Part shown: positions 58,887-62,251 of the stretch, in pieces
Layout: the number at the start of each line of letters is the position of its first letter
Position numbering within the stretch: the stretch's first letter is position 1
Assembly: GCA_900547225.1 (NCBI GenBank)
Contig: URFW01000001.1
Coordinates: forward strand, 128,456 to 192,455
DNA length: 64,000 bases
Source of the DNA: an uncultured Mycoplasmatota bacterium
GTDB lineage: Bacteria; Bacillota_I; Bacilli_A; RF39; UBA660
Reading direction: 5' to 3'
Notes under the pieces: generated by a model
What the model was told of the DNA's origin: nothing
The model's input: only the letters and a program-made list of their open reading frames with translations
Databases searched by the model: none
Position numbers and translations under genes: made by a program

Positions 58887-59711
58887 ATGAATGAACTAAA
58901 AGAATGCACAGAAAAAATGTTTGAGGATATAAAACATATAGATGAAGAAGGTAATGAATATTGGCTAGCAAGAGAATTGCAAATTGCTTTAGATTATAAA
59001 AAATGGCAAAAGTTTATAAATGTAATAGAAAATGCAAAAATAGCTTGTGAACAAAGTAATTTTATAATTGAAGACCATATTACCCAAGTGGGTAAAATGG
59101 TTGATATTGGATCAGGAGCAAAAAGAAAACAGGTTGATTATAAATTATCAAGATATGCTTGTTATTTAATTGCACAAAATGGTGATTCAAGAAAAAAGAC
59201 AATAGCTCTTGCTCAAACTTATTTTGCAATCCAAACTAGAAAACAAGAATTATCTGAAAAAGAGTATTCAATGTTAACTGAAGATGAAAAAAGATTCTAC
59301 CAAAGAAACTTAACTAGAAAAGGAAATTATTCTTTAAATATGGTTGCAAGAAATGTAGGTGTTAGAAACTTTGATAAATTTCATAATGCTGGATATAAAG
59401 GATTATATGGTGGTGAAACTGCAAATGATATAGCAAGAAGAAAGAAATTAAGATATAGAGAAGACATTCTAGATAATATGGGAAGTGAAGAATTAGCGGC
59501 CAACCTTTTTCGTATAACTCAAACTGAATCAAAATTAAAAAGAGATAATATATCTAGTGAAAATGATGCTAATGAAACTCATTATAATATTGGAAAAAAT
59601 ATTAGGAAAGTAATTGCCAAAAATGGTGGAACTATGCCTGAAAATCTTCCTACTCCTGAAAAAAGCTTAAAAGAATTAGAAAAAGAAAAAAAATTAATAG
59701 TTAGTAAATAA
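58887..59711 (+). CDS. DinD (DNA-damage-inducible protein D)-family protein, paralog 1
   Basis: 274 aa. N-terminal FEDIKHIDEEGNEYWLAREL and conserved QTYFAIQTRKQELSEKEYSMLTEDEKRFYQRNL block. Family call is from recalled similarity to E. coli DinD (Bro-N-like N-terminus), not a search. Confidence 0.55.
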   Translation: MNELKECTEKMFEDIKHIDEEGNEYWLARELQIALDYKKWQKFINVIENAKIACEQSNFIIEDHITQVGKMVDIGSGAKRKQVDYKLSRYACYLIAQNGDSRKKTIALAQTYFAIQTRKQELSEKEYSMLTEDEKRFYQRNLTRKGNYSLNMVARNVGVRNFDKFHNAGYKGLYGGETANDIARRKKLRYREDILDNMGSEELAANLFRITQTESKLKRDNISSENDANETHYNIGKNIRKVIAKNGGTMPENLPTPEKSLKELEKEKKLIVSK

Positions 59712-59721
59712 TGTAATATGT

Positions 59722-60082
59722 TTTAATAGATATCTTAGGATCATTTGTTGGAATACTTATTTATTATAAAATTGAATTATATACAGAAAAGATATTTGAA
59801 GATATAAAGCATATTGATGAATATGGTAATGAATATTGGTATGCTAGAGAACTTGCAAAGAGTTCTTGAATATAAAAATTGGAGAAATTTTAATAGAGTT
59901 ATAGATAAAGCTATAATTTCTGCTAATATAAGTTATCCTAATGAAAATTATTGGGGTGTCGAAGTCAACATCCCAATAAATAGTGGTAAGGGTAAAATTA
60001 AAGATTATAAGCTATCGAGATATGCATGCTATCTTATTGTTCAAAATGGCAATTCGCATATGAAGGTTATTACACTTATTTG
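59722..60082 (+). pseudogene. Composite remnant: vanZ-like 3' end (59722-59778) fused to a frameshifted, truncated dinD-like fragment (59779-60082)
   Basis: 59722-59778 matches the 3' end of the vanZ-like gene at 61480-61540. Downstream matches paralog 3 from codon ~8 onward, with a 1-nt insertion near 59856 and loss of the C-terminal two-thirds. Confidence 0.6.
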
Positions 60083-60108
60083 ATTATGTTGAAATAAAAA
60101 TATTCTTT

Positions 60109-60178
60109 AAGTGTCATAAAACGACACTTTTTTTATTTTTGATGTTTTATTATATAAAACTAAAAAAGGAGAGAGTTT
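60109..60178 (+). repeat. Copy B of the upstream cassette
   Basis: Identical to copy A over about 70 bp. Confidence 0.8.
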
Positions 60179-61006
60179 ATGAATGAACTAAAAGAATGCA
60201 CAGAAAAAATGTTTGAGGATATAAAACATATAGATGAAGAAGGTAATGAATATTGGCTAGCTCGTGAGTTACAAAGTACTTTAGGATATCATCAATGGAG
60301 AAGTATAAATGATTTAATTGTAAGAGCTAAAGTTGCTTGCAAAGAAAGTAAATATAATGTAGATGATCATTTTGCGGTACAACGCAAAATGATAAAATTA
60401 GCAAAAGGTGCAGCAAGAAAAGTAATAGATTATAAATTATCTAGATATGCTTGTTATTTAATTGTAATGAATGGTAATCCTAAAAAAGAAATTATAGCTC
60501 TAGGTCAAACTTATTTTGCAATTCAAACAAGAAAACAAGAATTATCTGAAAAAGAGTATTCAATGTTAACTGAAGATGAAAAAAGATTCTATCAAAGAAA
60601 CTTAACTAAAAAAGGAAATTATTCTTTAAACATGGTTGCAAGGAATGTAGGTGTTAGAAACTTTGATAAATTTCATAATGCTGGATATAAAGGATTATAT
60701 GGTGGTGAGACTGCAAATGATATAGCAAAAAGAAAAAAATTAAGATATAGAGAAGACATTCTAGATAATATGAATGAGGATGAGTTAGTTGCAAATCTTT
60801 TTCGTATTAATCAAACTAAACAAAAGCTTTTAAAAGATAAAGTGCAAGGAGAAAGTAATGCTAGTGATATACATTATGAAGTAGGAAAAAAGGTTAGAAA
60901 AGCAATAAAGGATATTGGTGGAACTATGCCAGAAGATATGCCAACTCCTAAAAAGAGTTTGAAAGAGTTAGAAAAAGAAAATAAAAAATTAATAGTTAGT
61001 AAATGA
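60179..61006 (+). CDS. DinD-family protein, paralog 2
   Basis: 275 aa. First 32 aa identical to paralog 1, divergent residues ~33-95, conserved central block, related C-terminus. Confidence 0.55.
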   Translation: MNELKECTEKMFEDIKHIDEEGNEYWLARELQSTLGYHQWRSINDLIVRAKVACKESKYNVDDHFAVQRKMIKLAKGAARKVIDYKLSRYACYLIVMNGNPKKEIIALGQTYFAIQTRKQELSEKEYSMLTEDEKRFYQRNLTKKGNYSLNMVARNVGVRNFDKFHNAGYKGLYGGETANDIAKRKKLRYREDILDNMNEDELVANLFRINQTKQKLLKDKVQGESNASDIHYEVGKKVRKAIKDIGGTMPEDMPTPKKSLKELEKENKKLIVSK

Positions 61007-61092
61007 TATATTACTTTGTAATAAGTTTACTAAAGTTTATTAAGATGATATAATTTTGTTGTTATTTTAAAGCTAAAAAGGAATAAAGAATT

Positions 61093-61551
61093 ATGAAAAA
61101 AGTATTTAAGTTAATGTTATTAATATTATGGATGATTTTAATATTTTGTTTTTCTAATCAAAGGGCAGATGATTCATCTAAATTAAGTGATGGGGTAATA
61201 GTAAAGGTAGCTAGTATTTTTGTTAAGGATAATTTAACAGATAATAAAAAGGATGAATTAATTGATAAATATACCTTTATAATTAGAAAAACAGCCCATT
61301 TTAGCGTTTATTTAATACTTGGTATACTTTCTATTAATTTATTATCTTCGTTTAATATAAAGCGTATTATTATGCTTTCTAGTCTATTTTGTTTTATATA
61401 TGCTTGTACAGATGAATTCCATCAATTATTTGTTATGGGAAGATCTTGTGAAATACGTGATGTTTTAATAGATACTTTAGGATCATTTGTTGGAATACTT
61501 ATTTATTACAAAATTAAATTATATATAAATAAAAGACAAAAATTAACTTAG
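61093..61551 (+). CDS. VanZ-like family membrane protein
   Basis: RKTAHFSVYLILG and DEFHQLFVMGRSCEIRDVLIDTLGSFVG motifs of the VanZ family. 152 aa. Terminator hairpin aagacaaa.../tttgtctt downstream. Confidence 0.65.
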   Translation: MKKVFKLMLLILWMILIFCFSNQRADDSSKLSDGVIVKVASIFVKDNLTDNKKDELIDKYTFIIRKTAHFSVYLILGILSINLLSSFNIKRIIMLSSLFCFIYACTDEFHQLFVMGRSCEIRDVLIDTLGSFVGILIYYKIKLYINKRQKLT

Positions 61552-61598
61552 TAAGTTATTATTTGTCTTTTTAATGATTAAAATAAAAATATCTTTTA

Positions 61599-61666
61599 AG
61601 TGTCATAAAACGACATTTTTTTATGTTTTATATTTTATTAAATAAAACTAAAAAAGGAGAGAGTTT
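61599..61666 (+). repeat. Copy C of the upstream cassette (slightly diverged)
   Basis: gtgtcataaaacgacat... aaaaaaggagagagtttATG. Shares an additional 20 bp (aaataaaaatat(t)ctttaag) with copy B. Confidence 0.75.
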
Positions 61667-62251
61667 ATGAACGAAATTAAAGAACATACAGAAAAGATAT
61701 TTGAAGATATAAAACATATTGATGAATATGGTAATGAATATTGGAGTGCTAGAGAATTTCAAAGAGTTCTTGAATATAAAAATTGGAGAAATTTTAATAG
61801 AGTTATAGATAAAGCTATAATTTCTGCTAATATAAGTTATCCTAATGAAAATTATTGGGGTGTCGAAGTCAACACCCCAATAAATAGTGGTAAGGGTAAA
61901 ATTGAATATATTAAAGATTATAAACTAATAAGATATGCTTGTTATTTAATAGCACAAAATGGCGATTCAAGAAAAGAAGTAATTGCGCTTGCTCAAACTT
62001 ATTTTGCAATCCAAACCAGAAAACAGGAATTATCAGAAAAAGAATATTCAATGTTAACTGAAGATGAAAAAAGATTCTACCAAAGAAACTTAACTAGAAA
62101 AGGAAATTATTCTTTAAATATGGTTGCAAGAAATGTAGGTGTTAGAAACTTTGATAAATTTCATAATGCTGGATATAAAGGTTTATATAATGGTGAAACT
62201 GCAAATGATATAGCAAAAAGAAAAAAATTAATAGAAAAATCAATTTGTTAA
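61667..62251 (+). CDS. DinD-family protein, paralog 3 (C-terminally truncated, 194 aa)
   Basis: Conserved N-terminal and central blocks, but ends RKKLIEKSIC* where paralogs 1 and 2 continue about 80 aa (RYREDILDNM...). Confidence 0.5.
   Translation: MNEIKEHTEKIFEDIKHIDEYGNEYWSAREFQRVLEYKNWRNFNRVIDKAIISANISYPNENYWGVEVNTPINSGKGKIEYIKDYKLIRYACYLIAQNGDSRKEVIALAQTYFAIQTRKQELSEKEYSMLTEDEKRFYQRNLTRKGNYSLNMVARNVGVRNFDKFHNAGYKGLYNGETANDIAKRKKLIEKSIC

Follow-up and report, generated by a model that had tools for sequence, protein, structure and literature searches.

Do the DinD-like genes that stand in tandem in a 64,000-nucleotide (nt) stretch of the low-GC genome of an uncultured Mycoplasmatota bacterium from the human gut (contig URFW01000001.1; the whole stretch is called here the window) owe their block-wise resemblance to recombination between the copies, or is selection on the proteins enough to explain it? 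The question comes from an original prediction, in which identical flanks around variable cassettes were read as the product of segmental gene conversion. We think it very likely that the locus is a polymorphic tandem DinD array that is reshaped by ordinary homologous recombination, with contributions of gene conversion, unequal crossover and allele exchange. The process is a known one, and the locus adds a new example of it from a family for which no description of mosaic genes was found in the literature searched.

The array occupies 58.8–62.3 kb of the window, with every element on the + strand, and consists of three dinD genes (copies 1–3) and a partial copy (the remnant). The genes are built from four modules: a conserved leader with codons 1–27, a hypervariable cassette at amino acids (aa) 33–83, a conserved core from aa 84 to about 215, and a variable tail. 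The cassettes are designated B1–B3 and the tails D1 and D2. The elements that enter the comparison are the following:

58817..58969, + strand: perfect tract formed by the hairpin leader, an AT-rich spacer, the ribosome-binding site and codons 1–27 of copy 1; equal to 60109–60261
58887..59711, + strand: dinD copy 1, 274 aa, cassette B1, tail D1; matches NF008573, Bro-N and PDC-S13
58970..59135, + strand: hypervariable cassette of copy 1, codons 28–83; 59.6% nt identity to copy 2
59211..59478, + strand: central block of copy 1, homogenised among the copies and starting near aa 109, recombination anchor; near-identity to copies 2 and 3
59479..59711, + strand: variable tail of copy 1, type D1; 69% nt identity to copy 2
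59779..60083, + strand: dinD remnant, a partial copy with only the N-domain, cassette B3; 96% identity over 158 nt to copy 3
60109..60178, + strand: leader of copy 2; identical to 58817–58886
60179..61006, + strand: dinD copy 2, 275 aa, cassette B2, tail D2; matches NF008573, Bro-N and PDC-S13
60592..60643, + strand: copy 2 central block, patch of four clustered single-nucleotide polymorphisms (SNPs); recombination tract by strain comparison with L001–L003
61597..61666, + strand: leader of copy 3, a diverged form of the common element; about 90–93% identity to the other leaders
61667..62251, + strand: dinD copy 3, 194 aa, cassette B3, tail deleted; 209 bits on NF008573
61916..61924, + strand: recombination breakpoint of copy 3 at the DYKL codons, from the three-way comparison of remnant, copy 3 and copy 1

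Alignment of the nucleotides did not give uniform divergence along the gene; the block boundaries are sharp. Copies 1 and 2 agree at 153 of 153 nt (58817–58969 against 60109–60261), a tract that comprises 70 nt of non-coding leader and codons 1–27, and when the 157 mismatches were shuffled 10,000 times over the 903 sites, a perfect run of this length never arose. The identity of their first 32 residues, on which the original prediction started, holds, with the DNA tract itself ending at codon 27: codons 28–32 specify the same residues by different codons, so that the identity of aa 28–32 is due to selection. From 58970 to 59135 the identity falls to 99 of 166 nt (59.6%), and the amino-acid identity of the cassette (aa 33–83) is estimated at about 33% by way of protein P0001, whose cassette is identical to that of copy 1. 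Strong divergence had been expected from residue 33 to about 95; it was found over aa 33–83 and does not reach residue 95, since residues 84–110 (59136–59210) are already 81% identical in nucleotides. The expected re-convergence follows, with 258 of 268 identical nt (96.3%) between 59211–59478 of copy 1 and 60503–60770 of copy 2, and with 228 of 237 (96.2%) between the central blocks of copies 1 and 3. In the tail (codons 197–274) copies 1 and 2 differ again, at about 69% nt identity.

Copy 3 does carry a third cassette that is also preserved in the remnant (96% over 158 nt). Up to 61915 it is of the remnant type at 83 of 85 informative sites, and from 61924 it is of the copy 1 type at most informative sites, about 25 of 30. 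The cassette common to copy 3 and the remnant reflects a segmental duplication that included a vanZ gene; taken by itself it is not a product of shuffling.

Taken alone, the block pattern of the amino acids is no evidence of recombination, because among 83 homologues from other genomes the region of about aa 111–215 is almost invariant and aa 33–83 are variable. Silent sites are more telling. Among the three copies, synonymous differences reach a proportion (pS) of 0.13–0.23 in the central block and of about 0.5 in cassette and tail; between the copies and the 83 external homologues, the central block gives a median of 0.56–0.58 and a minimum of 0.27. Codons that specify the same residue in copies 1 and 2 differ in 7 of 106 cases in the conserved blocks versus 25 of 80 in the variable blocks (post hoc Fisher test, p = 2e-5). 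Neighbour-joining trees of the blocks, with bootstraps of 100, conflict with one another. Codons 1–27 join copies 1 and 2 in 100/100 replicates, and the central block places copies 1, 2 and 3 in one clade in 83/100. For the cassette no copies pair (0/100), the nearest relative of each being external and never a resident copy. For the tail, copy 1 goes with the gene of the related contig L008 in 97/100, and the copies are grouped together in none.

Further evidence comes from contigs with the same locus in other human-gut samples, most of them short-read metagenome assemblies. The arrangement of the window is reproduced in several independent assemblies (L001–L003), and L006 is 100% identical over 1421 nt, from copy 1 through the remnant into the beginning of copy 2; the arrangement is therefore no assembly accident. 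The leaders of copies 1 and 2 occur in two types that change together: W/W in the window and L002, L/L in L001 and L003, and a mixed W/L in L004. L002 differs from the window at four positions in 5 kb, all inside 52 nt of the central block of copy 2 (60592–60643), and at all four sites L001–L003 have the state of copies 1 and 3. No donor of this patch was present among the first 87 loci compared, and the window version of it was later found in L091. In L094–L096 the central block of copy 2 is of the copy 2 type at its 5' end and of the copy 3 type at its 3' end, and in L097 one tail variant is common to both full copies. These comparisons catch homogenisation under way.

The variable modules are also combined anew from strain to strain. 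Cassette B1 is joined to tail D1 in copy 1 of the window, to D2 in P0010/L102 and in L088, and stands in a fragment after vanZ in L094; B2 is joined to D2 in most strains and to D1 in P0037/L101. At least six further cassette types are found at the locus. Among 196 family members the median pairwise amino-acid identity is 43% in the cassette and 87% in the core, and cassette identity is uncorrelated with that of the N-terminus, core or tail (Spearman −0.004, 0.05 and −0.08, respectively).

Contig L008, Mycoplasmatota according to its depositor, has one dinD immediately upstream of RNase J. Its RNase J gene is 82.5% identical to that of the window (pS 0.50), and its dinD has a different cassette from copy 1; in the 3' half the two dinD genes are 97–100% identical, and their tails 94% with a pS of 0.09. 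A segment that is so similar despite the diverged RNase J must have moved after the lineages split. Exchange thus extends beyond the resident copies of one genome, to strains and a sister species. A transfer between classes, as the label 'Lachnospiraceae' on P0027 might imply, is unsupported: P0027 lies in this same locus, in the order LytR-dinD-vanZ-dinD-RNase J, which makes it a variant of a strain or species, and the labels given by depositors are not reliable.

The size of the array varies as much as its composition. Ten contigs that encode an identical RNase J protein have different arrays, with one to three full copies plus fragments: a single full dinD adjoining RNase J in L093, two dinD genes with vanZ between them in L095–L097, an array of the window type in L089 and L090, and arrays with other fragments in L088, L092 and L094. 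L005 and L101 are without copy 2 and vanZ, which a crossover between the remnant and copy 3 explains. In L093, L094 and L097 the dinD that adjoins RNase J has its full length of 275 aa, so that copy 3 of the window is a derivative that lost its tail, by a deletion that the alignment places between A-rich 'KKL' repeats. At the site equivalent to 62171 of the window, L001, L003 and L089 have a one-base deletion that shortens copy 3 to 187 aa, and the tail-less copy is suggested to be decaying.

Partial copies are part of the same picture. The window remnant has no start codon, is frameshifted, has a 9-nt deletion and stops just before the QTYF motif; its 3' junction is found again in partial copies of other strains, five times in L102 (ERZ9426318 NODE_386). 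Between LytR and RNase J (1200–7300), this contig holds three full dinD genes and six partial copies with only the N-domain, of about 89–138 aa and with six different cassettes, whose shared end point '...QNG(N/D)SHMKVIAL(I/A)*' just before QTYF is the junction of the window remnant. Several of them are intact open reading frames with their own leader and might be expressed as stand-alone N-domains. A further short form, at L088:5162–5674, is a dinD variant of 170 aa: B1 runs in frame into D2, and aa 84–196, the whole conserved core, are absent, either through a genuine deletion or as an artefact of assembly.

Could such a mosaic arise in other ways? Uneven purifying selection on old duplicates, with a constrained core and a free N-domain surface and tail, would need no recombination at all, and it draws on real observations, namely that the amino-acid pattern is family-wide and that residues 28–32 of copies 1 and 2 are identical through selection. 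However, it cannot equalise 70 nt of non-coding leader and the synonymous sites of 27 codons, it cannot cut the synonymous divergence of the core three- to fourfold below that of the other blocks and of the external homologues, and it yields neither conflicting trees nor co-variation between strains. As the sole cause it is refuted, and we regard a history free of recombination as highly improbable. Protein selection does not account for the mosaic and recombination does, as silent sites, conflicting block trees, the breakpoint and strain co-variation support; the proposal of exchange between the copies is upheld in this respect, and the amino-acid pattern is also shaped by family-wide constraint. 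It is scarcely credible that faulty assembly of near-identical repeats or of mixed strains produced the mosaic. The comparison loci do come from short-read assemblies, repeats such as the perfect 153 nt or the roughly 270 nt at 96% can confuse assemblers, and odd forms such as the 170-aa variant of L088 could be artefacts; but independent assemblies agree, one of them matching the window at every base of a 1421-nt stretch that crosses two repeat boundaries; L091 has the four-SNP patch as well; and cassettes with 60% identity are not confusable by an assembler.

Two other explanations accept recombination and assign it a different course. According to one, a recent tandem duplication was followed by the import of cassettes and tails from other strains or species, with no conversion between resident copies. 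The near-identity of the 3' half of copy 1 to the L008 gene (pS 0.09 in the tail versus 0.50 for RNase J), the external nearest relative of every cassette and the many cassette types in circulation all suit it, and import is real, alongside conversion rather than replacing it. Import by itself is improbable, given that the leaders of copies 1 and 2 co-vary across strains with a mixed intermediate, that the copy 2 cores of other strains hold segments of the copy 3 or copy 1 type, and that both L097 copies have the same tail variant. According to the other, the array is a cassette reservoir in which the partial copies are silent and supply their cassettes to the expressed full genes, in the manner of pilE/pilS or of orphan modules in Rhs and contact-dependent inhibition (CDI) systems. 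The partial copies would then hold the second helix and wing of the N-domain in alternative versions, and exchange at the 5' block and DYKL would retune recognition, for instance of phage DNA or protein; if true, this would be cassette-based diversification of a candidate immune gene by general recombination only. It is appealing that the partial copies retain the conserved 5' block, a cassette, the DYKL...YACYLI flank and a common stop before QTYF, that six of them with different cassettes lie beside three full genes in L102, that B1, B2 and B3 are each found in both partial and full-length copies at 94–99% nt identity, and that the breakpoint between copy 3 and the remnant falls exactly at the 3' edge of the cassette. 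Nevertheless, the 3' flank of the partial copies is only 65–79% identical to that of the full copies, with exact runs of 8–32 nt, which makes it a poor conversion substrate; several partial copies are frameshifted or chimeric, as would be expected if unequal crossover had left them behind to decay; a recombinase or other dedicated machinery was not found; and several independent samples show the window-type arrangement without any change, which means that switching is not fast. We therefore consider the reservoir rather unlikely, and take the same doubtful view of the retuning of recognition that it would serve.

Under the explanation that we favour, an array reshaped by ordinary homologous recombination, the conserved modules are long enough to serve as homology anchors for recombination of the RecA type, and RecA itself would be the probable agent. 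Gene conversion between resident copies would homogenise leader, 5' end and core; the copy number would change, and partial copies would be left behind, through unequal crossover and deletions at microhomologies; and allelic exchange between strains and close species would import and re-sort divergent cassettes and tails. As regards dedicated switching machinery, the genes called from LytR to RNase J, and those further downstream as far as gyrA, include no recombinase or reverse transcriptase; on the upstream side, the flanks shown consist of genes for capsule biosynthesis. An inversion shufflon was rejected, all copies being direct repeats with only short internal inverted repeats. A diversity-generating retroelement was rejected as well: the cassette mismatches are symmetric and follow base composition with no adenine bias, and there is no reverse transcriptase nearby. 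An embedded RNA element behind the nucleotide conservation was also considered, and no Rfam family matches; the sole hit, to Clostridium-PBP in the RNase J leader (62283–62335), is below threshold (28.9 bits against a gathering score of 94.4, E = 0.59) and is probably due to chance.

Several points weigh against this explanation or narrow it. The direction and timing of single events are not fixable without more strains, and the low core divergence could come in part from recent duplication with cassette import rather than from repeated conversion. Short-read metagenome assemblies can mis-join near-identical repeats, and the blocks compared in the Fisher test were delimited after the pattern had been seen. 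The homologue sets were ranked by similarity to copy 1, which biases the counts of cassettes and tails, and typing by single linkage chains related cassettes, so that the 52 types among 200 sequences are a rough count. Positive selection is not demonstrable: the ratio of non-synonymous to synonymous change (dN/dS) stays under 1 when cassette types are compared, although their synonymous sites are close to saturation.

What are these proteins? Copies 1 and 2 score 350 and 333 bits, respectively, on the NCBIfam equivalog NF008573 (DNA-damage-inducible protein D; cut-off 242), covering profile positions 4–275 of 288, and copy 3 stays under the cut-off with 209 bits because its tail is deleted. 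Pfam Bro-N (PF02498; gathering score 25.6) is matched at aa 15–110 with 39.1, 38.4 and 35.7 bits in copies 1–3. The PADLOC model PDC-S13 (PDLC04919) matches the three copies over nearly the full length (E = 4e-103, 9e-99 and 1e-61); PDC entries are candidates only (PMC11514479), and the literature searched contained no mention of PDC-S13. PHROGs family 8036, with no function assigned, is matched as well.

Escherichia coli DinD is listed among the regulators of RecA, whose filaments it is reported to modulate (Uranga et al. 2011, as cited in PMC4457935), and dinD is among the LexA-regulated genes (PMC6590174). Near the window copies there is no Bacillus-type LexA box (CGAAC-N4-GTTCG, up to 2 mismatches), a consensus that may not be that of the host. 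Genes with a dinD domain have been described inside type I restriction-modification (R-M) operons (PMC9881135), and the genomic context of dinD is not conserved across species. DinD homologues of about 54% identity are present in 12 listed records of Streptococcus satellite phages (Javan), for example MK448350.1:1421-2185, where they lie 1.4–4.4 kb from one record end and are annotated as DNA-damage-inducible protein D. The PADLOC profile PDLC03083 (Specificity_I) has a DinD-like N-terminal part at positions 2–271 of 717, which implies that fusion proteins of DinD and HsdS exist. The PDC-S13 match, the satellite-phage homologues, the R-M operons and the non-conserved genomic context favour a role of DinD copies in conflict with phages, and the protein may act in phage defence or in DNA-damage handling.

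The original prediction also suggested looking at the variable segment in a structural model. A search by sequence found no solved structure, and copy 1 was modelled with AlphaFold from an alignment of 60 sequences (mean predicted local distance difference test, pLDDT, of 87.5). The modelled N-domain has helices at 2–13, 28–34, 40–56, 61–64, 89–97 and 104–118 with a beta-hairpin at 65–75/78–87, and the modelled C-terminal domain is helical. In this model aa 33–83 cover the second helix of a winged helix-turn-helix and most of the wing, as would suit a surface or recognition region. The conserved positions of the cassette recur every three to four residues (Y37, W40, F43, I47, C54 and S57), a spacing that fits a conserved buried face with a re-patterned surface. 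The net charges of the three window cassettes are +2, +7 and +3. We think that the cassette may be a recognition surface that selection keeps diverse. Cassette B3 deviates from the family-invariant residues C54 and R80, and it contains a perfect 12-bp palindrome (TTATTGGGGTGT...ACACCCCAATAA) at 61852–61883 in copy 3 and 59948–59979 in the remnant (DNA fold −11.7 kcal/mol, z = −6.8), which may be the mark of an inserted hairpin element.

The top structural match by Foldseek was DdrC of Deinococcus radiodurans (7udi, 8u0g and 7qvb), with a probability of 1.0, E = 4e-3, a template modelling (TM) score of 0.38–0.47 and 10–12% identity; the viral matches were Bro-N, antirepressor and regulatory proteins. 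One study describes DdrC as a Deinococcus-specific protein that binds DNA, is induced by damage and combines a winged helix-turn-helix with a helical bundle; its winged helix is acidic and thought not to bind DNA (PMC9303277). There are hints that DinD and DdrC, both damage-induced, share an architecture: in each, on the window side by the model only, an N-terminal winged helix-turn-helix is followed by a helical C-terminal domain. The match is globally weak and comes with no sequence similarity, so it is a fold resemblance and not family membership.

How does the locus compare with known systems? Concerted evolution by segmental gene conversion is well established in bacterial paralogue families such as tuf, the rRNA operons and opa. 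The window array is like them in its sharp-edged tracts of near-identity in direct repeats, its homogenised silent and non-coding sites, its strain co-variation and its changes of copy number, and differs in that homogenised anchors alternate with two diverged segments of many discrete types. Orphan Rhs/CDI modules and pilE/pilS share with it the truncated copies beside full genes, each with a variable module and a conserved stretch. The variable module of Rhs/CDI is C-terminal and paired with an immunity gene, and pilS switching is frequent and uses dedicated cis elements; unlike both, partial copies of the window type keep the 5' part, some of them with leader and start codon, and have weak homology in the 3' flank. 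HsdS of type I R-M systems has the same conserved-variable-conserved-variable layout, with spacers that mediate recombination and variable parts that re-assort. However, the window proteins have no HsdS target-recognition domain (Bro-N is their only Pfam match, and their match to Specificity_I is limited to the DinD-like N-terminal part), and the array has no hsdM or hsdR neighbours, its neighbours being LytR, VanZ and RNase J, and no inverted repeats or invertase.

E. coli DinD (PcsA), the SOS-induced modulator of RecA filaments, belongs to the same NF008573 model that copies 1 and 2 match over its full length; for E. coli dinD neither a multi-copy array nor a cassette mosaic was found described in the literature searched. 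The BRO proteins of DNA viruses and the phage antirepressors have the same N-terminal domain family, PF02498. Bro-N families are typically multi-copy, with shuffling of modules. In BRO proteins whole domains are shuffled and Bro-N is conserved, whereas the window genes vary a cassette within the domain of Bro-N type.

DinD is an old SOS gene, and its family is only a candidate for phage defence. At this locus one modelled surface of the N-domain is hypervariable in discrete types while the rest of the protein is almost frozen, and its variable modules re-assort between copies, strains and closely related species, in a chromosomal hot spot beside a capsule locus. Such a pattern of hypervariable, re-sorted cassettes would be the signature of a specificity determinant in an arms race. 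The recombination process is well known; here it acts on a candidate anti-phage protein and reshuffles the part that is likely to serve recognition. Should the cassette play no such role, the array is a tidy but ordinary case of concerted evolution. Either way, we think that the locus offers a clean, well-bounded natural case of conserved modules inside genes serving as recombination anchors.

The array is bounded by a LytR-family gene (57408–58814) and the RNase J gene (62333 onward), and it contains three further elements:

58813..58841, + strand: terminator-like hairpin 3' of the LytR-family gene; 11–13 pairs followed by a T run in the scan
59718..59790, + strand: 3'-end fragment of vanZ, 73 nt, joined to the dinD remnant; 90% identity to 61460–61532, the 3' end of the intact vanZ
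61093..61551, + strand: intact gene of a vanZ-family membrane protein within the array; Pfam VanZ 91 bits, NCBIfam vanZ_1

The hairpin (RNA fold −12.3 kcal/mol, z = −4.9) is, from 58817 on, the first element of the repeated leader, and its core is also found upstream of copies 2 and 3; the leader of about 70 nt precedes every full copy, with a terminator-like hairpin first and the ribosome-binding site last. The vanZ fragment fused to the remnant shows that duplication of a vanZ-dinD unit was followed by its erosion through deletions at microhomologies. Genes and fragments of vanZ recur in and around the array, also in other strains (L096:2644–2955 and L101:1820–2260). Upstream lies a capsule/polysaccharide cluster (about 48000–58800 of the window, compared with L088–L099) that is wholly different among strains with identical RNase J protein, its types being NeuB/CMP-sugar, Epimerase_2, Wzy/UDP-glucose dehydrogenase and pyruvyl-transferase, so that the dinD array is located at the edge of a capsule-switching hot spot.

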